Shown: positions 1 through 57,514, numbered from the stretch's first letter. The stretch: DNA of 64,000 nucleotides from Dehalococcoidia bacterium (GCA_041653935.1 JBAZEO010000006.1:6504-70503); one strand, 5' to 3'. Notes: generated by a model from the sequence alone, not told the origin. Made by a program: numbers and translations.

Positions 1-1732
1 GCATGATGCGTCCGTAGCTAGTACGTCCACACCACAACGGATAGCCGTGATCAGGATCCACGGTCTTGTCAGGCATGGTTTCCACATAACCATACTTCTC
101 AGCGTAGGCAATCTGCTGTGCATTCAGTTTCTTGATACGGTTGAACCGGCTCTGGATCCTAGCCTGTGCTCCAGGCACATGATAGGCACGATCCGCCGTA
201 CCGCTCTCTAGCACAGCTCCGTACTGCACAGCGAAGTCACCGTTCTTGGTCCACTGGTACCACGTGCTAGCGTAGGCCTCCTTGCTCTCCATACCATGTT
301 TCGCAAACAACTTGGGATGCAGCGTATCAAAGATGAGCATGTGATAACTGCCGTAGTAAGGCGGATCGTTAGGATGCTCAAACAGGTACACCATCTCTGG
401 CTCGTTGGCCTCGTAAGCTGGGAACCGCAGCTCTAGGTTCTTTGCATCACAGGAGTACCACACCCTACCCGGCGCAGGCCCAAAGCAGTACCGAAGATTG
501 AAGCCCTCCTTCTTGCTGATATTCTGCTCGTTCGGGTTCTGTGACGACCACCGCAGCGTGTCAGTGCCCGTGGGATTCAGTGACGGATGCAGTCTGTACC
601 ACACCCTATCACGGTGCTCCGTGTGTACCCAGAACTTCTTGTAGCTCTCCAGGTACCCATAAGCCGTGTCACGCTTGCGCTTGCCCATCAGTGCCGTCAC
701 GAACATCAGCGGCTTGCTGTTGCGTGGCAACGTGACTGAGTACTGCTCCAATACGGTCTTGTCCAGCGACGGTACCCCAGTCTTCTTGCTCTTCTTGAGT
801 GGGGGTAGATGCATCCCCTCCTCGCTGAACACAAACTCCGTGAGCGACTTGTTGTTGCCGCTCTTAGGCAGCGTCAACTCGTAGCCGTATCGCTTGGCTA
901 TGTTGAGGCACGTACGATGAGCGTCTTGACTGGCCTCGGCATACTCCGTACGTTTCTCCTCCAACCGTCCAGCGTGTAGCGTCACGCCGTAGTTTTCTAT
1001 AGCGGCTACCACGGGCAGCACCTTGAGCCGTTCCTCGTAGATCCGCCAGAGGTGCTTTTGCTTCAGGATCTGCTGTTGCCGCTTGAACAGCGGTAGCGTC
1101 ACGCTCGCGTCGCTGTCACCGTACTCACTCAGCACGGTCTCCCAGGTCTCGTCGCCACCACCCTCCTCGTGCACCAGTCGCGGCATCCAGCAGTCGTACT
1201 TCCACACGGTACTCTTCGCACTAGGCATCTCAGGCAAGCCTTCCTTGGCCTGTCGCCAGTCTGGCCTGTTAGTTCGTGCCCAGCTACGAGCCGCCAGCGT
1301 CACCTTCCTCAGCCTGTCCTCGTACGGCTGTACGTTAGCTTGCAAGTACACCATGGCCATCGTGGTCAGGTCATGGGGCTGATTGCTAGCCAGCAAGTGC
1401 CCTGCCAACAATGTATCGTAGATCTTAGCCCAGTCCCACCTCAGCTCCATGCTGTAGTCATTGAACAGCAGGCTCAAGGCCATGAAGTCAAACTTGGGAT
1501 TCTGTAATACGATCTTATCAGCACCGTCTATCTTGCGTTGCAGGTCCTTCAGGTCGCCGCGGTCTGCCACCACCCTACGCGTCAACGGATCCACTCGCCA
1601 CTCCCACGACACGTTGCACCCATCCTCGTCACAGGTGCTCACGTAGTAGGGCCTCGCTCCGTGCCGTAGATCCAGTCCCGTAGTTTCACTGTCTAGGCTG
1701 ATCATGCCTCCCTGTCGTGGTCGCTTAGGCAT
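1..1732 (-). CDS. DNA polymerase, family A (Pol I-like with 3'-5' exonuclease domain); C-terminus runs off the left edge
   Basis: Own minus-strand translation from ATG 1732 (alternative 1705): MPKRPRQGGMISLDSETTGLDLRHGARPYYVSTCDEDG (ExoI DxE). Further on, PAPGRVWYSCDAKNLELRF (motif A-like, ~430-480) and YQWTKNGDFAVQYGAV (motif B-like, ~215-260). The frame stays open to base 1, so it is absent from the ORF track. Only low-complexity + ORFs overlap it. Confidence 0.8.
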   Translation of the reverse strand, partial: MPKRPRQGGMISLDSETTGLDLRHGARPYYVSTCDEDGCNVSWEWRVDPLTRRVVADRGDLKDLQRKIDGADKIVLQNPKFDFMALSLLFNDYSMELRWDWAKIYDTLLAGHLLASNQPHDLTTMAMVYLQANVQPYEDRLRKVTLAARSWARTNRPDWRQAKEGLPEMPSAKSTVWKYDCWMPRLVHEEGGGDETWETVLSEYGDSDASVTLPLFKRQQQILKQKHLWRIYEERLKVLPVVAAIENYGVTLHAGRLEEKRTEYAEASQDAHRTCLNIAKRYGYELTLPKSGNNKSLTEFVFSEEGMHLPPLKKSKKTGVPSLDKTVLEQYSVTLPRNSKPLMFVTALMGKRKRDTAYGYLESYKKFWVHTEHRDRVWYRLHPSLNPTGTDTLRWSSQNPNEQNISKKEGFNLRYCFGPAPGRVWYSCDAKNLELRFPAYEANEPEMVYLFEHPNDPPYYGSYHMLIFDTLHPKLFAKHGMESKEAYASTWYQWTKNGDFAVQYGAVLESGTADRAYHVPGAQARIQSRFNRIKKLNAQQIAYAEKYGYVETMPDKTVDPDHGYPLWCGRTSYGRIM

Positions 1733-2879: not shown

Positions 2880-3986
2880 CTATTCGTCGCCGACCAGTTC
2901 GTCCCACGAAACGAGCTTGAACGCCTTCTGGTCATCCAGCGATTCCAGGTTGCAGGTGCGCTTCGGCTTGAATACCTTCTTCACCTCAACCTCGATTGCC
3001 TTCTTGGCCTTCGGGGGCTTGTACTTGTACACGTCGCCCACGGCAGGCTCCCACTCGGCCTCTTCCTCTTCGGCTTCGGCTTCCTCTCCTTCCTCCTCTT
3101 CAACAGGCGGGGCCTTTTTACCCTTGGTCTTGCTCTTGCCCGCACCCTCAATGGCGGCAGCGCAGTCGGCCCACGTGTCGTAGGACTCGGGGTCCAAGCC
3201 ACAAGCCTCAGCACGGTTGCTGATCTCGGTGGCAGCATCCTCGTCGCCTTCCTCGTCGGCTGCGGTAGCCAAGTCTTCCAGACTCACTTCCTCATCGGAG
3301 GCTTCCTCTTCCGCGGCCTCTTCCTCTTCCTCGGCGTCTACTACGTCTTCGACCTCTTCGTCGTCGTCTTCAACGTAGTCCACGGCACCGTTCCACACCT
3401 CGTTGGTGCGCGGCTCAGTGCCCACGTAGGGGTTCGCCGCCTTGGCAGCAGCCTCGGTCTTGTACTTCTTGTCACCCACGTAGAACGCACCATCGCGTTC
3501 CTCGATCTCCTGCTTGGCCCCCTTCCACGTACGGAAGCGGAAGTGCGGAGCCAGCTCCTTGATCGTGGCAGCCGTGGCTTCCAACTCGTCGTAGCCCACG
3601 TCGTCCAGGTCCAGGTCCGGCACCAGCTTTTTCCACTCGTTGAGGATCCAACCCATGTGGTCGCTGATTGTCTGCCGGCTGCGGCTGGGGGTGTCGCACA
3701 TGGGCTCCATGATACTGGTGCGCAGGCCAGCTATCGGAACGCCGTCGTGCTCCGTGGGCTTCTTTACAATACCGGCCGCATAGAAAAAGAATTGCCCCTT
3801 GTTGGTACCCTTCTCGTACGGCTTGAAGTAGCAGTCCACGAGCTGAGCGATGCCGTTTTCGATCCCACCGGGTAGTGAACCGCCGGCATCAAACACAACC
3901 TCGTCGTCCTTGTGCCCTTCGTAGGCTTCCTTCAACTTGGTTCCAAGTTTGGCAGCCAGTGCACTCTTCGTAACCTTCTTCACCAT
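2880..3986 (-). CDS. acidic protein of unknown function (possible ssDNA-binding analogue, by context only)
   Basis: 368 aa with long D/E runs (DDDEEVEDVVDAEEEEEAAEEE, EEEEGEEAEAEEEEAE) and an acidic C-terminus. Sits in the recombination module next to the ATPase and nuclease. Confidence 0.35.
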   Translation of the reverse strand: MVKKVTKSALAAKLGTKLKEAYEGHKDDEVVFDAGGSLPGGIENGIAQLVDCYFKPYEKGTNKGQFFFYAAGIVKKPTEHDGVPIAGLRTSIMEPMCDTPSRSRQTISDHMGWILNEWKKLVPDLDLDDVGYDELEATAATIKELAPHFRFRTWKGAKQEIEERDGAFYVGDKKYKTEAAAKAANPYVGTEPRTNEVWNGAVDYVEDDDEEVEDVVDAEEEEEAAEEEASDEEVSLEDLATAADEEGDEDAATEISNRAEACGLDPESYDTWADCAAAIEGAGKSKTKGKKAPPVEEEEGEEAEAEEEEAEWEPAVGDVYKYKPPKAKKAIEVEVKKVFKPKRTCNLESLDDQKAFKLVSWDELVGDE

Positions 3987-4018
3987 GGTAGACCTTTCAC
4001 ACTGTGTAGAACTAGTAA

Positions 4019-4198
4019 CTAGTCACCGACATACTCACGATTGCGGCGAGCAGCGATCTGCTCGCTGCGACGGATAGACACCTCCTTGGGGGCTTCTATG
4101 CCCAGCTTGACCTTGCCGTCGTGCACTTCCAACACATGGACCACGACGTTGTCGTTGATCACGATGAATGAGCCAAGCTTCCTTTTCAACACTAGCAT
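4019..4198 (-). CDS. csrA: CsrA/RsmA-family RNA-binding regulator homologue (59 aa)
   Basis: Not in the ORF track (under 60 aa). Own translation: MLVLKRKLGSFIVINDNVVVHVLEVHDGKVKLGIEAPKEVSIRRSEQIAARRNREYVGD. It matches the CsrA pattern MLxLxRKxGExxxIGDDxxxxVLxxxGxxVRxGIxAPKxVxxxRxE over its full length. Confidence 0.8.
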   Translation of the reverse strand: MLVLKRKLGSFIVINDNVVVHVLEVHDGKVKLGIEAPKEVSIRRSEQIAARRNREYVGD

Positions 4199-4202
4199 CC
4201 TG

Positions 4203-5027
4203 CTACCCTTTGCCGTTAATGATCTCCATCACAGCCTCAAACGATGGATCCACGATTTCTTCTGGCAGCGTTCGCCCACGAGGTACTCTGAACTTCGTGG
4301 TGAACACATCATGCGGTCCGGTGCGTAGGCAGTATTCTACCCCCTTCACCCGTACTCGCTGCCGTAGCGTCTTCTTACCTGACTTGATCACCTTCTCAAT
4401 GGTCTTGCCACGGATGAAGGTTTCGCCTATATAGTCACAGGCAGGATTCAACCATCCTACCAGCGACGGTGTCATAGCAGCACCGATGCATGGAGCAATC
4501 ACATCCTGATTGTTGCCGTCGCCTTCAAACGACCGCTCCTGAGCGACAATAACGCGATGCTGTGGCAAGTTCAGCATGGCTCGCATGATCTCCTTGCACT
4601 GCTGCGTGCACTGGCCGTACTGCTGCTGACTGGCGAGGCCCCAGCTCTTCTGAGCCGGTAGCTCATCCAATCCCAGCACCTCCTTGAGCACCAGATCTTG
4701 CAAGCCGCTACCGTGGTCCAGCACCACCGTCGCGAAGTCACCCGCTGTCTCCAGTAGGTCCCTCACGTCGGTACTCTCCTTGACCACCCAAGCCTTGATG
4801 GTCTTGCGGTATTCCGGCGTGTTGATGCTCTTCAGCTCACCGGGTCTGATACCACCACTACAGATGATGGCCAGTATAGGCTTCGGGAAGGTGGCCCACA
4901 GCGTCGTCTTGCCCGTACCGCTCCGACCATACAACAGCAGACTGATGGAGTCAGTATAGTCCCACGCTGAGGCCATGCTGCTCTTGGCTGCCTTCTTCTT
5001 CATACTCTGCTTCTTGACGATGGGCAC
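4203..5027 (-). CDS. AAA_24 / Sak4-like RecA-fold ATPase
   Basis: Walker A LLLYGRSGTGKTT near the N-terminus and Walker B-like VVLDHGS. Size and neighbourhood (nuclease, SSB-like gene) are typical of phage Sak4-type recombination modules. Confidence 0.6.
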   Translation of the reverse strand: MPIVKKQSMKKKAAKSSMASAWDYTDSISLLLYGRSGTGKTTLWATFPKPILAIICSGGIRPGELKSINTPEYRKTIKAWVVKESTDVRDLLETAGDFATVVLDHGSGLQDLVLKEVLGLDELPAQKSWGLASQQQYGQCTQQCKEIMRAMLNLPQHRVIVAQERSFEGDGNNQDVIAPCIGAAMTPSLVGWLNPACDYIGETFIRGKTIEKVIKSGKKTLRQRVRVKGVEYCLRTGPHDVFTTKFRVPRGRTLPEEIVDPSFEAVMEIINGKG

Positions 5028-46137: not shown

Positions 46138-47310
46138 CTACGAGGTCGTGGCGTGCACGATGCCCGCACGACCGCTGTAGTCAGCACGCAACTGAGGCAC
46201 CATGATCGCCATGACCTTGAAGTTCAGTTGCATTCCGCCACGGGTTTCCCACTGGACCGTGGTGATGTCCATGCCATTGACGGCACGGGCAACGTCCGAG
46301 GTCATCTGGACCAGCAGCAGCGTGAAGTCGTCAGTGAGGAAGTCCAAGCGGCGGACGTCCTGGATACCCTCGATCTTGCGCAACCGTTCGCGCAGCGTCT
46401 GGGTTGGCGCAGCCATGCCCGTCGTGGCCAACGCGAAGTAGTCGTTGTCCAGATAGGTGTCCCAGTCGTCGGAGTGGTAGAGCATGTATGGACCATAGAA
46501 GTGGTCGTCGTACAGCAACTGACGCATCTCCAGAACGTCCTGCACAGTGCTCGACGGATTGCTGCCCGTCGGCGTGGTCAAGTCCGTCTTCTCGTTGCGC
46601 TGCGGGAAGTTGGTGTACCCGTACACCGTGGGAATCTCATAGTCAGCGTAGTTGGCAGCCTTACCGAAGCTGATGCCAGTCTCAGCTCCGATGAGGGTCT
46701 TCTCAACCATCTCAGCGACACGGCGACCGGCAGCCTCAGCCATGGTCAGGTCCAGGGGCGTGCCGCTATTGCGAGACACCGCAAGATTGCGCTGGCTAAA
46801 CCAGAACGAGCTGTGCGTGATCGGCAGAGGCAGACCACGGTTCTTAAACAGTGGACTGTCGGTGCGTCCCTCGGTGAGACCGTCCATGTCCACGATGGCC
46901 TCGCCAGGATCACTCATGGCTTCACTTTCCAGCACGGTCTTGGCCATGCCGTTGAAGCCACCGAAGCTCGACGCAGCCGCAAGATCAGTCCACGCACGCA
47001 GACGCTGACGGGCTTCCTTCAGAATCTGGCGATCCATCTGGATCCACTCGTCCTTGCGCAGGCTGGTGGCATTCCACACGGGCGTGCCCATACCGTTGGA
47101 CGCCAACTGGCTGATTAGTGCCTTCTTGTACTCAGGCACGTACACACCAGTCTTGTCCTTGACCTTGCGTCCCGTATTCACGGTAACGCAACGCTGACCA
47201 CGCTCGTCGAAGTAGGGGCGCATCATGCCGGGATCGAACCGGCAACCAGCGAGGGCACCAGCCACGTCTCCGTAGCCCTGCCCGTTTTGCACGAAGTCTT
47301 GCACGAACAT
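46138..47310 (-). CDS. major capsid protein (HK97-fold, DUF2184/encapsulin-like type)
   Basis: 390 aa. Lies downstream of the scaffold/protease and a small head gene, and is followed by a strong hairpin. The family call is from memory of similar head modules. Confidence 0.6.
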   Translation of the reverse strand: MFVQDFVQNGQGYGDVAGALAGCRFDPGMMRPYFDERGQRCVTVNTGRKVKDKTGVYVPEYKKALISQLASNGMGTPVWNATSLRKDEWIQMDRQILKEARQRLRAWTDLAAASSFGGFNGMAKTVLESEAMSDPGEAIVDMDGLTEGRTDSPLFKNRGLPLPITHSSFWFSQRNLAVSRNSGTPLDLTMAEAAGRRVAEMVEKTLIGAETGISFGKAANYADYEIPTVYGYTNFPQRNEKTDLTTPTGSNPSSTVQDVLEMRQLLYDDHFYGPYMLYHSDDWDTYLDNDYFALATTGMAAPTQTLRERLRKIEGIQDVRRLDFLTDDFTLLLVQMTSDVARAVNGMDITTVQWETRGGMQLNFKVMAIMVPQLRADYSGRAGIVHATTS

Positions 47311-47930: not shown

Positions 47931-50195
47931 CTACGCTTCGGGCTTGGCCCAGTTCACCGTCGGCAACGGCAGATAGTCGTTGTCATCGTCCTTCGTGCCC
48001 ACGTTGGCCGTAGGCGGTACCGACGCCCCAAAGTAGCTCGGCACGTTCTGGCTCTCGTTCACAAGCGGCTTGGCCAACGCAGCCAAGTTCTGGAGCGTGT
48101 CCAACGGCATGGCGTTGAGCTGTTCCTTCGTGAACTTGTTTTGGGCGTTGCCAGTGATCACACCGATGGCCACGTCCTTGCGCTCCTGCTTGATGCTGCG
48201 CGCAAGGGCGATGTCTTCCATCTGCTCTCGGGTCAGGACGTTGCCCGTGGGTTTCTCTTCGTCCACAACTTCTTCCTCCTCTTCGTCCGCTGCCGCCATC
48301 TTCTTCTTGATGAATTCCGGCATAGCGTTCACGGTGATCTTGGAATCCATGCCGAACCCTTCACGGGCGGCATTTACGACAGCGTCGGCTTGGAGCTGCT
48401 TCTCCAATGCGGTATCCAGCTTGTTGAGCTGGTTGTCCGTCAGGTCCATCAACTCATCGCGATCAGCCTCATCCCAGCAGCAGCTATTCTCGATGAGGTT
48501 ATCCACGATATCTTCGCGGCTTTTGGTCATATCTGACCTCCTTCTACGTTGGTTACGAGTTTGGCCAGACTGGCCTGGATTACCCTTTGACACACGGATG
48601 GTTGTTTCACCATAGCCGAAGTCTACAAGCGTAGCTGTAAGGTCGCCCTTAGACATCGCTTCCTGCACGTTCTTGCCACCGGAGATGCTGGGTATGTTCT
48701 GACTGTGAGTGTGTTTCCACCCGTCATTGATCATCTTGGTTCGTACCTTGCCGATATCTTCCGAGGCTAGAACAGACTCCTTCCCATGTCCGGCACGCAC
48801 ATTAGCATCAGCCACGACCATCTTCTTACTGCCTTGATAGGGATTCTGTGTCGTAGCAATCCCAGCACTGCTTAGCACCTCTGCAGTTTTCTTACTGGGT
48901 AGATCCTTGCGTGCTTTGTGCATCGCAATAGAGATAGGCACTTCGTCAGTACCAGACACGCGTTGAACGGCATCACCCTTGAGTGTTGTAGACTTTGCTT
49001 TCTTAGGGGCAACTGCTTTCGCAGCATCAGCGGCCTCACGACCCTTCCTACTGGCTGCCCCAGACTCTTTCCACAGCTTGCTAGCCTCTTCTTTCTCACC
49101 CTTGTCAGACATCTTGCGAGCCTTGGCTGCCAGCTTGGATGCCTCTGCCTGATACTTCTTGGCATCAGCTCTGAGCGATTCATAGTCAGAGCCACCACCC
49201 GCTTCGCCCTTGTACGACGCCTTCTCGGTCTCAGCGGCAGCACGATCTTCGCTAGCCTTAGACTTAGCGTCTAGTTCAAGTGCCTTCCGCTTGGCGATTG
49301 TTTCACGCAGTGGGCCTTCCTCAATAGCGGCAGCTTTGCCGTACTCTTCCTGCTCTTCAAGATCTGCCATTTCCTTGGTGAGACTGGCCTCTTTCTTCTT
49401 CAGTGAGTCAATCTCACCAGCACCGCTCTTGGCAGCACCATGGGCCTTGGACGCACCCTTGCCGCCAGTAGCTCCACCACCTCCACCTCCGCCCGCACCG
49501 AACTGGCCTTTCGCATCACGGGGTTGATTGGGGTTGTAGGCGTTCTCAACACCTAGCAGCACAGCGAGGCTCTGGAGCACAGACAATTTCTCTTCAAGCG
49601 GCACGGTAGTATCTCCTGTGTGGTTGACCAGCACACCACAGCCGTCCCTGAGGGAACAAGCACCGATCTGATCAGGCAGGATTGCCAAGTGATCCGGTCT
49701 GTAGTTGCGTGCCACGTGCGTATAGAGCTTGCCGTCCGGCGCAGTAGAGCCGTTCTCTGCTGGCTCGTTGTCCGTGTACAGCCCCGTGCTCAGCTCCTGC
49801 GGCTCGTTCCGCAGCAATGCGTCGTACACTCGCTGGTCTACGGTACGTGTGCGCTCTGCGTCAAACCAGCCCTCGGCGGTCAGCTTGCCGTTATAGGCAG
49901 GCCGGCGCACGTAGCCGATCCCTTGCTTGTCCAGCACTCCGGGCGACTGGGCAGACACGTGCGATCCGTCTACCGATTGCGGATGGTAGACCACGATCGG
50001 CATCTCGTTCCATGCCATGAAGTCCCGCTCAATCTCGTCAGCGGGATAGTACAGAGGCCCCTGTGATCCATTCAGGACACCGGGAACGATCAGCGTCAGA
50101 GGGGCAACAAGATACTCGCGTCCGCCACGGAACTGGCGTCGCGTCTTACCTGTCACGTTCGCTGTAATAGAATGGAGCATGCTTTTCCTCGGCAA
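47931..50195 (-). CDS. prohead protease/scaffold fusion protein (DUF2213-like N-domain + long coiled-coil)
   Basis: The N-terminal GREYLVAPLTLIVPGVLNGSQGPLYYPADEI...MPIVVYHP resembles DUF2213. It is followed by AYNPNQPRDAKGQFGAGGGGGGG, then a K/E/A-rich coiled-coil. Confidence 0.55.
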   Translation of the reverse strand: MPRKSMLHSITANVTGKTRRQFRGGREYLVAPLTLIVPGVLNGSQGPLYYPADEIERDFMAWNEMPIVVYHPQSVDGSHVSAQSPGVLDKQGIGYVRRPAYNGKLTAEGWFDAERTRTVDQRVYDALLRNEPQELSTGLYTDNEPAENGSTAPDGKLYTHVARNYRPDHLAILPDQIGACSLRDGCGVLVNHTGDTTVPLEEKLSVLQSLAVLLGVENAYNPNQPRDAKGQFGAGGGGGGGATGGKGASKAHGAAKSGAGEIDSLKKKEASLTKEMADLEEQEEYGKAAAIEEGPLRETIAKRKALELDAKSKASEDRAAAETEKASYKGEAGGGSDYESLRADAKKYQAEASKLAAKARKMSDKGEKEEASKLWKESGAASRKGREAADAAKAVAPKKAKSTTLKGDAVQRVSGTDEVPISIAMHKARKDLPSKKTAEVLSSAGIATTQNPYQGSKKMVVADANVRAGHGKESVLASEDIGKVRTKMINDGWKHTHSQNIPSISGGKNVQEAMSKGDLTATLVDFGYGETTIRVSKGNPGQSGQTRNQRRRRSDMTKSREDIVDNLIENSCCWDEADRDELMDLTDNQLNKLDTALEKQLQADAVVNAAREGFGMDSKITVNAMPEFIKKKMAAADEEEEEVVDEEKPTGNVLTREQMEDIALARSIKQERKDVAIGVITGNAQNKFTKEQLNAMPLDTLQNLAALAKPLVNESQNVPSYFGASVPPTANVGTKDDDNDYLPLPTVNWAKPEA

Positions 50196-50662: not shown

Positions 50663-53600
50663 TCATAGGAGCCACTCCTTAGACTTAGATGAGACTTGGT
50701 CTACCCACGGCGGAAAGATACCCTGCTTGTACCGTGGATCTGTGGTCAAGGCAAAGATCTCACAGAATGCTTCCTCAGCATTCTTGCCAGCGTAGCTAGT
50801 AACATCTGTCCCAACGGTGCTTGGAACCATGCTTCTCCACTCACGCTGTTGTTCGTTTGACAGCTTACCAAATAGCTTGTGACCGTACTCATGTCGTAGG
50901 ATAGCAGCATAGCCACCAACACCACCAGCCGTAGGTTGACCTGGGACTAGATCAGACCCGCTCTCGCCACGCCAGAACGGACTGTCGTAGACGTGAGTTG
51001 CAGCCCGTTCCTCTGCCGCACATGAACGACCCTTCTCTTGCCTCCTGAAGATAATAGGAACGTCACCATGCTTCTCAGCAAACTCCTGATATGCAGGGTT
51101 CGCCCTATTGGCATTCGCAGCATTCTGTATCTCCAAGTGCAGCTCTGGGTCAAGGTCCTTGAAGGCAGGCTTGTCGCCCTCGTTCCCCTTCTTAGACCGT
51201 AGCACCTTCTTCCAGTTATCCACGATCTCTTCATGGGACGGCCTGTTACTTGCGTCCAACCGTCCTTGCTTGATCATGTGGTCAGCAAATCCCTCAGCCT
51301 CACCAGCAATCAGCTCAGCAGCCTCGTTCACATTAGTCACAACGACTTGACCACCGTGCGTCTTCGCCCACTGCTCGGCTTCCTTCAGTGTGCTAAACTT
51401 CGGCGGAGCGTCTGGTATACTCTCGTGACCCACACCACCTCCCCCACTGCTCCATTGGCCTTTGTAGTCACGTGGTTGATTGGGGTTATAGTTAACCACG
51501 CTGACCGGTCGCTTCTTGGCGATACGCTTGTCAGGGCCTACCCACTTGGTTCGCTTACGTTGCTCCGCCAGCGTACGCTTCTTAGGCTTCTCAGCCTTCA
51601 AGCTCTCGGTGATAGCAGCTTGGATCTCCTCCTTGCGGCGCACCTGTTCCTTCTGCGGCTCGCCCACGTTAGCGGGTAGGTGTGCGCATCTACAGTTGCT
51701 GACTACTAGTCCACCACTATAATACAGGCTAGTTGCTGTTGTGGCATCAAAAGCAAGTCCTTCATACTCGGTAAAGGAAACACTATGAATCCGCTCCCAC
51801 TTGAAGAGGTTAGGCAACGCTACTTGGCTGGAGAAAGTCTGTGTTCTATGCAGCAACGATTCGGGGTCAATCGTAGTGCAATTAAACTCCGTCTCGAGAG
51901 AATGGGGATCGTCCTCAGAAGATACACCCCTGCTGAGAAGGCCAAATTTGCTTACGAAGCTAGAAGGGGCCAGACTGACACTATGGCCACTAAGCTGGCT
52001 AGAGCCACTACTAGATCGAAGCTCGGTCTTGGGGTAGGTTCCTGCGAAGTTGCCCTCTCGCAATTTCTCGACGCCGAAGGAATCCCATACTCCCAGCAAA
52101 CCACGTGCGGGCCATATTGCCTCGACTTTACCCTGACAGAACACCCTATCGCCGTGGAGATCCGAGGACGTGGCTACAATCCCAGAGTTGCCCGTAACTC
52201 TAAGAAGAGACTCAAATATGTTCTCGACCGTTGGAACTTGATTTACATTCAAGCCTGTGGAAGACCCATTCTTCCGGTGGTCGTAGAGTACATAGTCGCC
52301 TTCTCTAAGCTGTGCCGCAGGAACCATTCCTCTAGGGGTGAGTATTGGGTGATTAGGTCCGATGGTCGTCCGAGCCAACCCGCTCCGCAGGGTAAGTACA
52401 ATAGCTGGGCCGCAATACCAAGCCCGGACCAGCTCCTCGCATTCGCCATAAGAAGCAAACGATGATCCAGCAAACACAGCATTAGGATGCCTCGGAATCA
52501 TGCCCCTCGCTTCTTTTATTGTGAGCACTACACCGTCCATGGCTTGACATAGTCTACACACCCTACCGTCGCCAGCCGTATCCCACTCCACCATGACGCC
52601 TACTTCGGTCACGCCTAGTCGCTCCATAGCGTCTAGCTGACCTTCTGCATGGCTGCGAATTACTTCTGTCCTCGCAATAGTCGCAGCCCTATTGGAGCCG
52701 AAGCCTAGCTCGTCCTTGAGCCGTCGTGCTAGAACGTGTGGATTGTCGCCACGTGCGAAGCCTTCAGTCAACTCGCGACTGACTACTACGGCCATCGCTT
52801 CAGTCACGCCCTTCAGATCAGTGAACACGCGACCCGCCATGAGTTGAACCTTCTCAATGCTCATGGGCCTGCCGAAACTGCTCCGTAGGAACTCCTCCTT
52901 CGTGCCGTTGTACCATCGCATATCCTTCTGCACAGCCGGTACTCTCACGTCGTCAAAGGCACGACCCTGTCCCTTCTGGTAGGCCTCCTCCACAAACTTG
53001 CGCCAGTACGCCTCACCCAGTCCGTCGTCCTTGCCAGCCAGCACCTCGTCCTTCAGCACCCCCTGCAACCACTTCAAGAACGCCGCTATCTGCTGCGGCC
53101 TACTCTGAAAGACCCACCGTGCGTTCGTCGCTAGTTGGTTGTGAGTAGCCTTCCACTTCTTACGCTTCGCTTCCCAGATCTTTCTAGCGTCTGGATTGGC
53201 TGGTGCCTTACCACTCAGCCATGTAGGATAATCCACAGACTTTGTAGGTGTGGCCTTCTTGACAACTGGGGGCTTGCTAATCCCAGGGAGGATAGATTTG
53301 CTGGGTTCTACGGTCGACGCGGTCCCAAACTTACGATCCATAAGATCTTTGACTACGGCTGACGACCTTGGTAGTTTGTCTGTGAGTGATTCTGCATGTA
53401 GGTCTGCCCCTAGATGGTACGCTGTCAGATGGGCAAACGATTCATTTCGACCTTGGCTTCTACCAGTCAAGAAATAGTTATGCTGCCCATACTTCTCTGC
53501 GGCACTGATAGATCGCATATCCAGCTTGTACGCTTCAGCAAACGTATCAGAGCTAGACCAATCATTTTCAACATCTAGTACGTGCCCTACTTCGTGGGCT

Positions 53601-55039
53601 ACAGCGTAGAAGTTCCTTTCCTCATCGGTGCTTGTGGGGTCTAGCTTCTTAGCCATGTCACCCGCATGAACCTTCTCAGAGAAGTTCAGTTCCTTCTTGT
53701 CATAGTTGACAAAGGCGTTTGCCCCCTGTTTACGCATCTCTTCGTCTGAGATTGACTTAACAACCCATCCCTTAGATTCTACAAACGCCTTGATGGATGA
53801 TGGTAACTTGTCATAAGCTTCTAAGGTAGTATCAGCAGCTCCACCACCAGAGCCCCATCTACCACGAGCATCCCGTGGTTGATTAGGATTGTATGCGTTC
53901 GCAGTCACGCCCTTGTAATCGCCCACTCTCCACTCTGTCTCGCCCGGATTGTAATAGAGGTCCTTTACGTCGGCGGTCCTGATGAAGATAGTGCTGGCGG
54001 GCTTCGCGTCCTTCAGATGGTCTGGCCAGCCCGTACCCATGAACAGCGGAAACTGCTTGCCTTCCAGCGACACAGCCTGAAGCACAGCGAAGTCGTTGTC
54101 GCCGTGTTGCAGCATCAGGTCGTTCACACGTGCCTCAGACACACCGTGCGTCACGCCAGCACTAACCAGCTCGTCTCTAGTAAGTTCGCCTCTAGCTGCC
54201 TTCCGTGCAATGTTGAGGCCGTCGCGGTACTTCTCAGCGTTGTCTTTCGTGGTAAACGAGATCAGGTTGGAAGCACTGCCGCCCAGCGTCTGCTGACCCA
54301 GCTCGTCGCTGCTCTTCAGGCCCTCTGTCTTGATCTTGTCTGCTGCGAACGTGGCATGATAGAGCTGGTCTGGTGGCTCTACGTAGCCTGGATGCCCCGG
54401 TCGCAAGCCGCTCGGCGTAGCCAGTCCTTCAATCCGTTGCAGCTCCGTAGACTGTCGCTCACGGTCCTTCCAGTACTCCTCTCGCTTGCGTTCCGCCTCT
54501 GCCTTGGTTGCCTCGCTGGACTGCCGCAGCCGTACGTCCTTGATATCCAGTCCCATCTCCTCATGCTCTTTGAGGGCCAGCCTAGCATCCTCAACGGACA
54601 TGGTCGCTACGATGTCGTCGTTGTCGTCCAGGAACTCCACATCGCCGGTCATGTCACTCGGCAGCTTGTCGGCTGTGAACACACCACCAGCTCCACCACC
54701 GCCACTACTCCACTTGCCCTCTGCATCACGTGGTTGCGAAGGGTTGTAGGCGTTCAACGTACTCTCACGCACCAGACCAAACGCGTCCTCTACCAGCAAC
54801 AGGTCTTGGATCTGCTTAGCCACTCGTGCAAACCGCCTACGTAACTCCACCTCAAACAAACGCCGCAACGTAGCAGTCCTACTTGGATCACTACGTAGTG
54901 GGTTCTTGGCCTTGCGTGGATTGCCTGCATTAGAAGTGAGAGGGCTGCCAGGGTGTGACCCTGTGCGTTCCTCGGGTAAGGTACGACCCCTGCTCCCCGA
55001 GGAGACAACAACCCTCTTGCGTGGCTTAGCGATCACCAT
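50663..55039 (-). CDS. polyvalent head protein: MuF/SPP1 gp7-like morphogenesis domain (intein-interrupted) fused to two zincin-like HExxH domains and other modules
   Basis: 1458 aa. HEVGH at about 53583-53597 and HEYGH at about 50879-50893. The MuF hallmark CRLC...HPN|CRC is split by a 262 aa insert. Three copies of YNP(N/S)QPRDxxGxWxSGGGG. Confidence 0.7.
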   Translation of the reverse strand: MVIAKPRKRVVVSSGSRGRTLPEERTGSHPGSPLTSNAGNPRKAKNPLRSDPSRTATLRRLFEVELRRRFARVAKQIQDLLLVEDAFGLVRESTLNAYNPSQPRDAEGKWSSGGGGAGGVFTADKLPSDMTGDVEFLDDNDDIVATMSVEDARLALKEHEEMGLDIKDVRLRQSSEATKAEAERKREEYWKDRERQSTELQRIEGLATPSGLRPGHPGYVEPPDQLYHATFAADKIKTEGLKSSDELGQQTLGGSASNLISFTTKDNAEKYRDGLNIARKAARGELTRDELVSAGVTHGVSEARVNDLMLQHGDNDFAVLQAVSLEGKQFPLFMGTGWPDHLKDAKPASTIFIRTADVKDLYYNPGETEWRVGDYKGVTANAYNPNQPRDARGRWGSGGGAADTTLEAYDKLPSSIKAFVESKGWVVKSISDEEMRKQGANAFVNYDKKELNFSEKVHAGDMAKKLDPTSTDEERNFYAVAHEVGHVLDVENDWSSSDTFAEAYKLDMRSISAAEKYGQHNYFLTGRSQGRNESFAHLTAYHLGADLHAESLTDKLPRSSAVVKDLMDRKFGTASTVEPSKSILPGISKPPVVKKATPTKSVDYPTWLSGKAPANPDARKIWEAKRKKWKATHNQLATNARWVFQSRPQQIAAFLKWLQGVLKDEVLAGKDDGLGEAYWRKFVEEAYQKGQGRAFDDVRVPAVQKDMRWYNGTKEEFLRSSFGRPMSIEKVQLMAGRVFTDLKGVTEAMAVVVSRELTEGFARGDNPHVLARRLKDELGFGSNRAATIARTEVIRSHAEGQLDAMERLGVTEVGVMVEWDTAGDGRVCRLCQAMDGVVLTIKEARGMIPRHPNAVFAGSSFASYGECEELVRAWYCGPAIVLTLRSGLARTTIGPNHPILTPRGMVPAAQLREGDYVLYDHRKNGSSTGLNVNQVPTVENIFESLLRVTGNSGIVATSSDLHGDRVFCQGKVEAIWPARGLLGVWDSFGVEKLREGNFAGTYPKTELRSSSGSSQLSGHSVSLAPSSFVSKFGLLSRGVSSEDDPHSLETEFNCTTIDPESLLHRTQTFSSQVALPNLFKWERIHSVSFTEYEGLAFDATTATSLYYSGGLVVSNCRCAHLPANVGEPQKEQVRRKEEIQAAITESLKAEKPKKRTLAEQRKRTKWVGPDKRIAKKRPVSVVNYNPNQPRDYKGQWSSGGGGVGHESIPDAPPKFSTLKEAEQWAKTHGGQVVVTNVNEAAELIAGEAEGFADHMIKQGRLDASNRPSHEEIVDNWKKVLRSKKGNEGDKPAFKDLDPELHLEIQNAANANRANPAYQEFAEKHGDVPIIFRRQEKGRSCAAEERAATHVYDSPFWRGESGSDLVPGQPTAGGVGGYAAILRHEYGHKLFGKLSNEQQREWRSMVPSTVGTDVTSYAGKNAEEAFCEIFALTTDPRYKQGIFPPWVDQVSSKSKEWLL
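51695..52480 (-). other. intein (Hint domain, 262 aa, Ala-1 ... Ser-Asn / Cys+1) inserted in the HPN|CRC motif of the MuF domain
   Basis: N-side: RHPN-AVFAGSS...LTLRSGLARTTIGPNHPILTPRGMVPAAQLREGDYVL (blocks A/B-like). C-side: YEGLAFDATTATSLYYSGGLVVSN-CRCAHLP (blocks F/G-like). Removing it restores HPNCRC. Confidence 0.7.
51785..52465 (+). CDS. HTH + Vsr/DUF559-like PD-(D/E)XK endonuclease (homing-endonuclease candidate) encoded antisense inside the intein
   Basis: 226 aa with AAGGAA 6 nt upstream of the ATG. N-terminal HTH VRQRYLAGESLCSMQQRFGVNRSAIKLRLERMG. Core EVALSQFLDAEGIPYSQQTTCGPYCLDFTLTEHPIAVEIRGRGYN...RLKYVLDRWNLIYI matches E..l...L...G....Q.....y..Df......iavEidG. AGA/AGG-rich codon usage, unlike the neighbours. 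Confidence 0.55.
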   Translation: MNPLPLEEVRQRYLAGESLCSMQQRFGVNRSAIKLRLERMGIVLRRYTPAEKAKFAYEARRGQTDTMATKLARATTRSKLGLGVGSCEVALSQFLDAEGIPYSQQTTCGPYCLDFTLTEHPIAVEIRGRGYNPRVARNSKKRLKYVLDRWNLIYIQACGRPILPVVVEYIVAFSKLCRRNHSSRGEYWVIRSDGRPSQPAPQGKYNSWAAIPSPDQLLAFAIRSKR

Positions 55040-55345: not shown

Positions 55346-57514
55346 TCAGTTTTTCTGATTGGGGTTCCAGTTGTCGGTGGGTTTCAGTTTGTCTGTCACG
55401 TCCACTATCTTTAGGCCACCACCATCCATAAGCTGATAACCCCAGGCCCTAGAAGCACTGGACAGCGGAACAGATCCATGAGATTCAGCGTACAGATCCT
55501 TTGACCCCCAATAGAACTTTGGATCCACTAAGGCTGACTCGTGCACTTCTACGAGCAACCCTGCAGAACCCTTAGCTGCTCCTCCATAGATCGGGATGGG
55601 CTCCTTAGAGAAGTTTGTAGTACCACCGTGATCAGCCGAACGACCAGGACCTAGCTCACCTGTTGTTAGAGCCTTATCAAAGTCTTCCTTTGTAACAAAC
55701 CGATAGACATAGTCTTCTCGCGGTACGACGGTATCGCTGAATCGCTTTGTTACAGGAGCATTGTCGACTTGCTGCTGGATTTCTGCTTTCACGCTTGCTC
55801 CTCCGCCACCGCCCCCACTCCCAAACTTACCATCGGCGTCACGTGGTTGGTTTGGATTGTAGTTCTCAACCTTCTTCTTGCTTGGGAACGCAGCCACCTC
55901 GTCACCCTCAGTCGTGACAACCTTCTCGCCCTCACGCATCTTGATAGTGCCGGGTGCTTCCTCGGGCACTGGAGGCGCAGGCACGTGACCGGGTACGATC
56001 TCGTCCTCGGTGTCTGGGTTGGTCTTCTCGAGCTGGTCCATGGCACCTTCCAGCACTTCGTCAACCTCGTTCTGCGGCATCTCCATGATCCGTGTGAGGA
56101 AGTCGTTGGGAGCAATGAGGGCTTCCACATTGCCGCCGATGTACTTGGCCATGGCGTCCACGCGCTGGACTGCCACCTGTGCCTTCTCCAGCTCACTCAG
56201 TGCTTCCAGGTCTGGCCATACTGCGGAGTAACCCTGAGGCTCAGGCAGCACACCTACCATGATGCAACGGTCCACGAACGGTATGATCATGCGAGGCGTG
56301 AGGTACTTACCCTGCCTAGCACGCATGCGATCGTTCCACGAGTCGCTATCCTGAGAAGAAGCCAGCTCGCCGCGCTCGGATCCTTCGAAGATACGGCGTG
56401 GAACAGCCAGTTCGATGCAGATAGCACCGATCTGAACGTCGATCTGCGGCGTAGGATCCACAACCTGCGGAGCTAGGCTCTTCGCACTCATGCCCATCAG
56501 AGCCATGTATCGCTGCAACCCGTTCATGTACTGCTCCATCTGCTCGCGCAGCGCAGCAGCATCCACGTTCACGTCGCCGCCTAGCTGCGGATGGGTCTCC
56601 AGCGACCAGCCGGGAAACGCTCCACGGAAGTACATTTCGGCACTACCACCATAGAGCTTGCGCAGGTCTAGGATCCTGTGCAATACCGGCTTCATGCGCG
56701 GCGTGCCGAAGATCTCAGAGCTGCCGCAGTTGTCGGCGATGTGAATGACTCTGGTCCAGTGCACCATCTTGGTAGCAAAGGGTAAGCCAATACCACCCTT
56801 GGTCCACTCGTTGGGGTCGTTGAACGTGATGCTGTACATGACCGGCTGACCATATCGCGGCGATGTAGGATTGGTCTCGTACTGAGCAATCTGCACCAAC
56901 GACTCATCAAACGCCCTCATGAACAACAGACGACGACCCTTGGTCTTGTCCTTGTCCACGTTCAGTGTGTACACGTTACCCGTAGGCTTGGCTGGTGCCT
57001 TCACTTCCGCGGGCTGCTCTTGGCCCTTGACTGGAATGTCTACAGGCTCGGACCACTTCTCCTCGACGCCGCGGACTGGCTTGCTCAGCTCTTGGCCGTC
57101 ATCCAGACCTAGCAGCAGCACACCGAAGCAGCCTATTCCACTCAGCACGTCAGCACGGCGCAGGTACTCCCAGATCGGTGAGCCTTCCTCGCCTTGGCCA
57201 CGGTACCAGCTACGTCCACGTAGGCTGTTGCTGAGGTTTTCCCATGCTGTCTCAAACTCCGTGGTCGCCTCGCTGTCCTCGTCCTCGTACACCTCCGGCT
57301 CGTTCTTCCAGGACTCGTTAGGTATCACGTTGACCACGCGATTGCCGATAGGATCCTCGTCGTACAGTTCACGGTAGCCGTTTGGCTCCATGCCGCCGTC
57401 AGGGTAACCGCACTCCACCTTGAGGTCACGCCGTGGATCCAGCAGCTTCTGCAGTAGCTCAGATCGCTGCATCATTGCGTTGAACAGAATTTCGTTGTTG
57501 ATCGCTTCGCTCAT
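55346..57514 (-). CDS. portal protein with C-terminal extension
   Basis: 722 aa, between the large terminase and the MuF gene. After NYNPNQPRDADGKFGSGGGGGG (about 55799-55861) comes an extra domain of about 150 aa. It ends in NWNPNQKN. Confidence 0.65.
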   Translation of the reverse strand: MSEAINNEILFNAMMQRSELLQKLLDPRRDLKVECGYPDGGMEPNGYRELYDEDPIGNRVVNVIPNESWKNEPEVYEDEDSEATTEFETAWENLSNSLRGRSWYRGQGEEGSPIWEYLRRADVLSGIGCFGVLLLGLDDGQELSKPVRGVEEKWSEPVDIPVKGQEQPAEVKAPAKPTGNVYTLNVDKDKTKGRRLLFMRAFDESLVQIAQYETNPTSPRYGQPVMYSITFNDPNEWTKGGIGLPFATKMVHWTRVIHIADNCGSSEIFGTPRMKPVLHRILDLRKLYGGSAEMYFRGAFPGWSLETHPQLGGDVNVDAAALREQMEQYMNGLQRYMALMGMSAKSLAPQVVDPTPQIDVQIGAICIELAVPRRIFEGSERGELASSQDSDSWNDRMRARQGKYLTPRMIIPFVDRCIMVGVLPEPQGYSAVWPDLEALSELEKAQVAVQRVDAMAKYIGGNVEALIAPNDFLTRIMEMPQNEVDEVLEGAMDQLEKTNPDTEDEIVPGHVPAPPVPEEAPGTIKMREGEKVVTTEGDEVAAFPSKKKVENYNPNQPRDADGKFGSGGGGGGASVKAEIQQQVDNAPVTKRFSDTVVPREDYVYRFVTKEDFDKALTTGELGPGRSADHGGTTNFSKEPIPIYGGAAKGSAGLLVEVHESALVDPKFYWGSKDLYAESHGSVPLSSASRAWGYQLMDGGGLKIVDVTDKLKPTDNWNPNQKN

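Follow-up and report, generated by a model that had tools for sequence, protein, structure and literature searches.

A probable mobile intein in a phage MuF-like head protein with a Vsr-like endonuclease gene in codon register on the opposite strand

Results and discussion

Organisation of the locus

The sequence analysed here is a stretch of 64,000 nucleotides from Dehalococcoidia bacterium (GCA_041653935.1 JBAZEO010000006.1:6504-70503), which we refer to as the window. On its minus strand lies a phage gene for a MuF-like minor head protein of 1458 amino acids (aa), and within this gene is a 262-aa insert with the features of an intein. The plus strand opposite the insert contains an open reading frame (ORF) for a protein resembling the Vsr endonuclease. 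The features of the minus strand are listed here, with positions counted from the first letter of the window.

50663..55039, minus strand: host gene for the MuF-like minor head / head-morphogenesis protein, 1458 aa, identified by its ORF, Pfam Phage_Mu_F and PHROG head-morphogenesis families
52481..52489, minus strand: N-extein junction His-Pro-Asn (aa 851-853) of the MuF HPNCRC motif; the reading is RHPNCRC in relatives without the intein
51695..52480, minus strand: whole intein insert, 262 aa (MuF aa 854-1115), from AVFAGSS with Ala at residue 1 (Ala1) to GGLVVSN, between RHPN and CRCAHLP
51686..51694, minus strand: C-extein junction Cys-Arg-Cys (aa 1116-1118), of which the first Cys (Cys+1) is the presumed splicing nucleophile
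52265..52480, minus strand: N-terminal splicing lobe, insert aa 1-72, modelled as beta strands with a pLDDT (predicted local distance difference test) score of 69-77
52337-52366, minus strand: block B, TIGPNHPILT, within the N-terminal splicing lobe
51806..52264, minus strand: central in-frame linker, approximately insert aa 73-225, Ser-rich and stop-free with no confident fold
51695..51805, minus strand: C-terminal splicing lobe, approximately insert aa 226-262, ending ...WERIHSVSFTEYEGLAFDATTATSLYYSGGLVVSN with its terminal Asn, delimited by alignment

The coordinates and the translation bear out the initial annotation of this sequence, which had placed the insert exactly between the HPN and the CRC of the MuF motif. 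Once the insert is taken out the MuF protein is 1196 aa long. The Pfam Phage_Mu_F match falls at MuF aa 753-845 and several PHROG head-morphogenesis families also match. Excision of the insert in silico raised the Phage_Mu_F score from 41.2 bits (profile positions 3-95 of 112) to 55.9 bits (3-110 of 112). The junction restored in this way, ARGMIPRHPN/CRCAHLPANVG, is near-identical to that of an intein-less relative (L071, ARGMIPRHPNCRCAHIPANVG), and the insert-free coding sequence around it reads ...ATTCCGAGGCATCCTAAT/TGTAGATGCGCACACCTA....

Comparison with relatives lacking the insert agreed with this placement. The 25 closest MuF relatives in IMG/VR are 45-61% identical, and approximately 20 of them are uninterrupted, with a contiguous RHPNCRCA(H/F)(I/L)PANVG. 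Two others, L075 and L082, have a different intein at the same site, of the type that begins with Cys (Cys1) and of 283 or 332 aa, each with its own antisense ORF of 258 or 326 codons combining a helix-turn-helix (HTH) with a Vsr-like domain. The distribution at the MuF site is therefore sporadic, with most close relatives empty and two carrying another intein and antisense homing endonuclease (HEN). The MuF gene gave no nucleotide match to any record in the phage collection, and the capsid of the host phage is at best 34% identical to those of Brevundimonas phages. Judged on its sequence, the host is an uncultivated phage unrelated to the actinobacteriophages.

Codon register and openness of the two frames

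The features of the plus strand are as follows.

51785..52465, plus strand: antisense homing-endonuclease gene, 226 aa and stop, codon-aligned with the intein frame
51774..51778, plus strand: Shine-Dalgarno-like AAGGA, 6 nt before the ATG, a sequence-level assignment
51785..51919, plus strand: N-terminal HTH DNA-binding module, aa 1-45, with predicted helices at 6-14, 19-26 and 30-39 (pLDDT > 90)
52037..52357, plus strand: Vsr-like PD-(D/E)XK nuclease core, aa 85-191, from alignment and structure matches
52124-52126 and 52157-52159, plus strand: D114 and E125, respectively, invariant in 82 sequences
52265..52462, plus strand: C-terminal tail of the endonuclease (ORF aa 161-226), lying opposite the N-terminal lobe of the intein

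The plus-strand ORF lies antisense to insert residues 6-232, with its residue j opposite insert residue 233-j, and the frames are exactly codon-aligned. In this register a stop on the antisense strand needs a sense TTA, CTA or TCA codon. All three have synonyms, so avoiding them should carry no cost in amino acids. Reading codon by codon confirmed the earlier observation that all three are absent from the plus-strand ORF, where Leu is encoded only by TTG, CTT, CTC and CTG and Ser only by TCT, TCC, TCG, AGT and AGC. The ORF is also rich in AGA and AGG, as had been noted, with 15 of its 26 Arg codons of this kind compared with 22% in the other genes of the phage. The minus frame is continuous across 50663..55039, and the intein is thus not split. 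Both GC and AT skew turn toward plus-strand coding at 51650-52400.

To assess openness, each protein was held fixed while its codons were redrawn among synonyms according to the codon usage of the phage itself (11,267 reference codons). The probability that the minus frame is open given the plus-strand protein was 0.00125, and that the plus frame is open given intein aa 6-232 was 0.00015, so the double openness exceeds what this usage would give by chance. Openness in the window alone is nonetheless weak evidence, because this window, at 54% GC, has many codon-aligned shadow ORFs 200-350 codons in length. We did not accept it as sufficient and comparative evidence was therefore used. Two such codon-aligned antisense ORFs, each of 321 aa, lie on the plus strand at 46153..47118, in the capsid gene, and at 53879..54844, opposite the N-terminal part of MuF. 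Their translations are junk-like and we take them to be ordinary shadow ORFs.

The endonuclease ORF could likewise be a non-coding shadow of the codon-aligned frame, with its homologues the mirror of a conserved in-frame intein domain. The occurrence of shadow ORFs in the same register, one of them (53879..54844) in this very gene, would fit such a view, as would the fact that any conserved protein yields a 'conserved' codon-aligned antisense translation and the lack of a significant Pfam match for the window ORF itself. However, the ORF is also open in AT-rich relatives (Aaphi23 and two Vibrio phages, 41-45% GC), where chance openness is 1e-6 to 1e-9 in each direction. A free-standing homologue (P0080, described below) has a closed antisense frame, and relatives match the MTES_1575, DUF559 and HTH profiles. 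The plus-strand protein is modelled with a Vsr-like fold at a pLDDT of 89, against 22-33 for the centre of the minus frame. Together with the substitution pattern described next, in which central changes are preferentially silent in the plus frame by up to 22:1 and the extein controls show the opposite, these observations make a mere shadow ORF scarcely tenable.

Selection switches frame along the insert

Because position 3 of a codon in one frame opposes position 1 in the other, a change that is silent in one frame is mostly a replacement in the other. Every aligned codon pair among 33 non-identical related inserts was classified accordingly, and the number of changes silent only in the endonuclease frame was divided by the number silent only in the intein frame. 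The ratio varies along the insert as listed below.

Extein controls, insert positions -9..5 and 261-272: ratio 0.06-0.07
N-terminal lobe, insert positions 6-65: ratio 0.12-0.27
Transition, insert positions 66-95: ratio 1.1-1.6
Centre, insert positions 96-215: ratio 1.5-22
C-terminal lobe, insert positions 231-260: ratio 0.07-0.16

The ends of the insert are selected as an intein, while the centre is selected as an endonuclease and its intein frame is only kept open. The same switch was seen in an analysis of five sequences, whichever frame guided the alignment, and again in three further clades, among them the close pair Fosterous and Vivi2 (Gordonia). The scan and the AT-rich homologues are the decisive evidence for dual coding. 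They also give substance to the earlier suggestion that the intein frame is merely held open across an endonuclease gene.

The region shared by the two proteins had been described as the low-information centre of the insert. This is right for most of the endonuclease gene but not for all of it, since the last ~65 endonuclease codons overlap the conserved N-terminal lobe, where the intein frame dominates selection. The GEYWVIRSDG strand of the endonuclease is the reverse-complement reading of block B, TIGPNHPILT. Within the tail overlapping the N-terminal lobe, helix 165-179 and strand 187-191 of the endonuclease model are confident, and the free-standing relative P0080 retains GEFRVI. It may be, from the alignment and the model, that the block B overlap is truly bifunctional, with T-P-N-H-P-I-L-T read on one strand and G-x-Y-x-V-I-R-G on the other.

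The antisense endonuclease

The AlphaFold2 model of the plus-strand protein, based on an alignment of 82 sequences, has a pLDDT of 89.2 and a predicted template modelling score of 0.72. It consists of a three-helix HTH, a helical linker and an alpha/beta core. The top matches in the PDB are 1vsr (E. coli Vsr), 3r3p (the homing endonuclease I-Bth0305I) and 1cw0 (again E. coli Vsr), each with a probability of 1.00 and E ~2e-3. The HTH is further supported by a match to phrog_4538 at aa 6-45 and by matches to HTH_38, HTH_7 and HTH_23 in 8 of 15 relatives. Among the same 15 members, eight match MTES_1575 REase (E <= 0.1, best 3.8e-5) and five match DUF559. The initial annotation of the ORF as an HTH joined to a Vsr/DUF559-type core is thus upheld by the model, its top matches and the profile matches of the relatives. 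The Shine-Dalgarno site that it had placed before the 226-aa ORF is also there, and in relatives a GGAGG-type site is conserved upstream, reading L-E-V in the plus frame.

Besides the invariant D114 and E125, the residues Y111, A123 and V124 are conserved in at least 90% of the 82 sequences, and R142 and E88 are conserved in the set of 15. From their conservation the two acidic residues D114 and E125 are likely to have a catalytic role. The EDxHD motif is absent from the 226 aa, where the equivalent stretch reads IAVEIRGRG. The window clade departs from the family at two nearly invariant positions, with Cys in place of N112 and without the Gly of the GW motif. The window endonuclease carries an N-terminal HTH, whereas REQ3 and other members of the clade of inserts that begin with Ala (the Ala1 clade) do not.

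The two departures raise the question of whether the endonuclease gene, though intact, has been domesticated or inactivated here, with the element vertically inherited and no longer homing. The search found no close relatives that would show recent transfer, and some inteins with VSR-like HENs look vertically inherited (10.1101/2025.01.02.630785). Yet the ORF is full length, with D114, E125, Y111 and R142 conserved, and both departures are common to the whole Ala1 clade, which is still under purifying selection in the plus frame. The window endonuclease also has an HTH, gained or retained, which is missing from its nearest relatives, and useless antisense ORFs should decay fast. We regard loss of activity as unlikely, though it deserves some weight.

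The intein and its splicing

Both ends of the insert resemble splicing domains in the model. The intein-frame model, with an overall pLDDT of 40.9, is confident only at insert aa 21-70 and 221-240, which form beta strands, and the C-terminal lobe is modelled as a long beta hairpin (pLDDT 61-82). Nearly all of the top 50 PDB matches found by Foldseek for this model are inteins or related Hint-type domains; the best has a probability of up to 1.00 but E = 2.6e-3, for a model of pLDDT 41. The N-terminal lobe shows weak sequence matches to intein-containing proteins (PI-MtuI, and the intein-bearing IF-2 and RtcB of NCBIfam). Sequence searches of PDB chains with both translations returned noise, except for a marginal match of the N-terminal lobe to PI-MtuI (E = 1). 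The window insert itself has no Pfam match, while relatives reach PF14890 Intein_splicing at E = 2.8e-7 and 1.6e-6, under the gathering score. The profile searches thus supported the two assignments through relatives, which match Intein_splicing and MTES_1575/DUF559, but not through the window sequences, which fell below threshold or gave no match. With the excision result and the Foldseek matches, they are in keeping with the splicing blocks recognised by the initial annotation.

No LAGLIDADG or HNH domain was found in frame in a Pfam search of the insert, as had been stated. Ser makes up 15.6% of the central intein-frame sequence compared with 6.5% in the exteins, and the centre is modelled at a pLDDT of only 22-33, so that its description as Ser-rich and of low information stands.

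The residues expected to take part in splicing are unusual. A class 1 intein has Cys, Ser or Thr at residue 1, where the window insert has Ala (AVFAGSS). Sister clades at the same site begin with Cys (CYLPGT, CFPGQ and CVTGE). Block B contains the His (TIGPNHPILT) with a Gly three residues earlier instead of Thr, while the Cys1 relatives read VTPNHP. The C-terminal Asn and Cys+1 are both present (...GGLVVSN/CRC) and are retained in nearly all of ~40 homologous inserts. Class 2 inteins (M. jannaschii KlbA) and class 3 inteins (mycobacteriophage Bethlehem DnaB type) resemble the window insert in having no Cys, Ser or Thr at residue 1 together with a Cys+1. Unlike class 3, it has Ile/Leu after the block B His, Asp at block F (AFDAT) and Val before Ser-Asn. 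Class 3 splicing was therefore rejected for the window intein, as the WCT residues, Trp in block B, Cys at position 4 of block F and Thr at position 5 of block G, are missing. The Cys of an SLYC motif was considered as the missing nucleophile and also rejected, since Y, N, S or A is found there in several intact members. By elimination only, class-2-like splicing through direct attack by Cys+1 would be the most likely route, and the Ala1 clade without WCT residues may use a splicing mechanism outside the three defined classes.

These departures could also mean that the element is no longer a working intein here. It would then be a permanent 262-aa insertion, or would undergo C-terminal cleavage only, in which cyclisation of Asn would divide the 1458-aa polyprotein into a MuF part at the N-terminus and a C-terminal part of 343 aa. 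Ala1, the Gly for the block B Thr, the Ser before the terminal Asn and the lack of WCT would all be explained, as would the Tyr of the window where most Ala1-clade relatives have the Cys of SLYC, and processing is conceivable in so long and multi-domain a MuF protein. Against this, Ala1 is common to over 30 diverse inserts; nearly all of these keep the Asn and Cys+1, and purifying selection on their splicing lobes is strong. The SLYC Cys is not universal, its position being held by N, S or A in some inserts. The insert interrupts the motif that is most conserved in MuF, contiguous in ~20 of the 25 relatives, and failure to remove the insert would probably be costly. Splicing-competent Ala1 inteins exist in both class 2 (KlbA) and class 3. 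A non-splicing insert is, in our view, quite improbable.

Homologues and products of decay

A search with the intein-frame translation found four full-length metagenomic relatives (38-44% identity). All four inserts have a codon-aligned antisense ORF with the core LDFxLTE(H/Y)PIAVEIR, broken by a stop in L004. With the plus-strand ORF as a single query sequence, one called homologue was obtained, P0001. Close relatives of the window insert were not found with a single protein in IMG/VR, JGI metagenomes or GTDB genomes, and broader relatives came only from profile-based scans. P0006 is 82% identical to the window insert in the N-terminal lobe.

When the plus-strand ORF was compared by tblastn with 50,697 phage records, 34 genomes matched, with hosts comprising Pseudomonas, Gordonia, Rhodococcus (REQ3), Haemophilus/Aggregatibacter, Vibrio and Cronobacter, along with one environmental virus. 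Among the matches listed, 30 of 30 lie under a minor head, MuF or head-morphogenesis gene or a hypothetical protein. In each of the 11 phage records that were opened, the match is on the strand opposite the gene, the antisense ORF is unannotated, and its frame is codon-aligned and open for 181-301 codons from the first start codon. A further 43 metagenomic loci and one prophage of Prescottella equi came from the profile scan, and among those of full length nearly all are open (194-288 codons). The frames are codon-aligned and open at all 12 phage loci compared and at about 40 metagenomic loci, and the antisense ORF stays open, in the same register, in about 55 homologous inserts.

The profile search of called proteins returned 82 endonuclease homologues, several of them named very-short-patch-repair endonuclease in their source. 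The family has at least 1,857 representatives (50%-identity clusters) at E <= 1e-30 among 1.84 billion, and its further occurrences include a Streptomyces prophage, a Chloroflexi plasmid and many metagenomes. Six called members were placed on DNA, and five of these run antisense within inteins, whose host genes are MuF (three), DNA polymerase A (one) and a small gene of unknown kind (one). The polymerase member (L067 2501-3220, plus strand) lies antisense to a Cys1 intein (CFPGDTV...YIVHN/C), and the element is therefore not restricted to MuF.

The free-standing HTH-Vsr member, P0080 (L022 3001-3744, plus strand), has a GC content of 36% compared with 53% for its neighbour. It is convergent with, and abuts, the 3' end of an intein-less MuF gene (3741-4649, minus strand), ~15 codons from ...HPGCDFGCRC. 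It is possible that P0080 is a relative engaged in 'intron-less homing' or a precursor of the intein-borne form.

Several loci appear to be decaying, and in both directions. In L004 the intein is intact with a stop in the endonuclease frame. L064 2501-3085 holds a shortened Ala1 intein from which ~50 central residues and the nuclease core have been lost, with stops in the antisense frame; it resembles a mini-intein or a derivative in decay, and marks which part can be dispensed with. In L001 the intein (138-1550, minus strand) and the endonuclease (480-1334, plus strand) lie inside a small phage gene other than MuF. The endonuclease, P0001, is intact, with 284 aa and two HTH repeats. The intein frame has one stop between the N-terminal lobe and the centre in a contig of 3x coverage, which could mean that the gene is truly fractured or split, or that the sequence is in error. 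Because its antisense frame is an intein with one stop, P0001 was rejected as a free-standing endonuclease. Decay both ways in L001, L004 and L064 is what would be expected of two separable functions that move as one homing element.

The endonuclease also appears able to expand into a splicing lobe. L057 1390-2277 and L061 2501-3388 are Ala1 inserts with ~50 extra residues in a loop of the N-terminal lobe, and the extra codons read on the opposite strand as a putative HTH-like C-terminal extension of the endonuclease (...GIPRRQLSNIF... and ...GIPRRLFVRAV..., respectively). In the Streptomyces phaeochromogenes prophage L020 (3001-4011) only the antisense endonuclease, P0007, is annotated and the open MuF-plus-intein ORF has been missed.

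Interpretation of the element

The anatomy of the element, its homology, fold and frame-specific selection, and its sporadic distribution were all established computationally. It is very likely that this is a mobile intein in the HPN/CRC motif of MuF whose homing endonuclease is a separate, codon-registered antisense gene between the splicing lobes. For splicing, expression of the endonuclease, cleavage specificity and homing we infer the following course. The 1458-aa precursor would splice to give the 1196-aa MuF with an intact HPNCRC. Given Ala1, splicing would probably be non-canonical and could start by direct Cys+1 attack in a class-2-like manner. The minus-strand reading of the centre would yield a disordered Ser-rich linker, removed along with the intein's other parts. 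The endonuclease would be translated from a plus-strand transcript through its own ribosome-binding site and, on co-infection, would cut MuF alleles without the intein, close to where HPNCRC is encoded. In the recombinational repair that follows, the intein and endonuclease would be copied into the cut allele.

Several observations weigh against this interpretation. In addition to the frequency of shadow ORFs in the window, the intein model is poor (6 sequences underlie it) and Foldseek E-values are ~2e-3 for both models. The intein is non-canonical, with Ala1, Gly for the block B Thr (IGPNH) and Ser before the terminal Asn, and it lacks the class 3 WCT residues, having HPIL without a Trp, AFDAT with Asp at F4 and VVSN with Val at G5. 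The window plus-strand ORF scores under the Pfam cutoff (MTES_1575, 12.2 bits, E = 0.19, cutoff 38.2); the assignment of the window endonuclease draws on family profiles and predicted structure. A scan of the plus strand gave no convincing promoter or terminator, with one weak sigma-70-like site at 51465-51492. The searches gave no close relative of this element, so the evidence for selection applies at the level of the family and not of this lineage.

Relation to known systems

The initial annotation did not recognise the layout as a known one. It has in fact been described in a 2025 preprint by Gosselin, Arsenault and Gogarten, who report contiguous inteins with 'anti-sense VSR-like' endonucleases in actinobacteriophages, including in minor capsid proteins, with an unstructured in-frame centre and endonuclease models that match 1CW0 and 3R3P (10.1101/2025.01.02.630785). 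The REQ3 minor capsid intein is named there and called class 3 (10.1101/2025.01.02.630785). The window plus-strand ORF is 41.7% identical to the antisense of the REQ3 minor capsid gene (E = 2e-24). The two systems share a contiguous intein ORF, a Vsr-like ORF opposite it in the usual place of the HEN domain, and a minor capsid (MuF-like) host protein. They differ in that the window phage is unrelated to the actinobacteriophages, its HEN carries an N-terminal HTH that the REQ3 element lacks, and its intein has none of the WCT residues that go with the class 3 assignment of REQ3. The host range found here also extends well outside the dataset of the preprint. The antisense arrangement of a Vsr-like HEN is thus already known, and what this locus adds is an unrelated uncultivated phage.

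Fractured genes, in which Vsr-like or GIY-YIG endonuclease genes lie between split-intein halves on the same strand (Dassa et al. 2009, PMC2677866), are also phage-borne. They too have a Vsr-like endonuclease as its own ORF at the HEN position of the intein, and the two are believed to be mobile as a single unit. There, however, all three ORFs share one strand, with stop and start codons splitting the intein, whereas the window endonuclease is encoded opposite an intein frame that is continuous. I-Bth0305I, of the EDxHD homing endonuclease family (PDB 3R3P; Taylor et al. 2011, PMC3239194), shares the Vsr-like fold and a phage homing context, and 3r3p is the second-best match to the endonuclease model (TM score 0.60, normalised to the target), though with only 14% identity in the structural alignment. 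Unlike the window endonuclease it sits in a group I intron, and the window protein is without EDxHD. As far as the account in the preprint goes, inteins with antisense LAGLIDADG endonuclease ORFs have also been described (Gorbalenya 1998; Gogarten et al. 2002; cited in 10.1101/2025.01.02.630785). They similarly place an endonuclease opposite a contiguous intein, but the window enzyme is instead an HTH joined to a Vsr-like PD-(D/E)XK domain.

Because the layout has been published as a preprint, the locus adds breadth and mechanistic detail and not a new concept. The additions made here are the frame-resolved selection, the wider host range, the intein-less and alternative-intein alleles, and a free-standing relative beside MuF. 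Both strands are read across about 680 bp, in codon register, and the comparative data show which strand 'owns' which segment, making the locus a natural system for how two proteins share one DNA sequence. Members of the endonuclease family occur widely in phages whose hosts are Proteobacteria, Actinobacteria or Chloroflexi. Annotators miss these genes, or, as in L020, sometimes call the endonuclease and miss the MuF gene. We would suggest, tentatively and with doubts outweighing our confidence, that antisense-endonuclease inteins form a large and systematically unannotated class of phage mobile elements, not a curiosity of the actinobacteriophages. Both the Ala1 splicing lobes, together ~110 aa under selection, and the compact HTH-Vsr endonucleases could supply parts for engineering proteins and editing genomes.

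Other features of the head proteins

The MuF protein is unusually long and has two HExxH metallopeptidase-like motifs outside the MuF domain, AVAHEVGHVLD at aa 482 (about 53596) and LRHEYGHKLF at aa 1383 (about 50893). There is also a weak Pfam Reprolysin_4 match at MuF aa 472-499 (E = 0.022). On these motifs MuF may be a polyvalent head protein carrying protease modules.

A second motif, (N/A)YNPNQPRDxxG(K/R/Q)(W/F)xSGGGG, is found six times on the minus strand, with starts at 55858, 55366, 54745, 53890, 51487 and 49535. Two copies are in the 722-aa ORF 55346..57514 upstream of MuF, the second of them truncated at the C-terminus, three are in MuF and one is in the 754-aa protein 47931..50195. 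From its placement the motif looks like a shared linker, processing site or module boundary of the head proteins.

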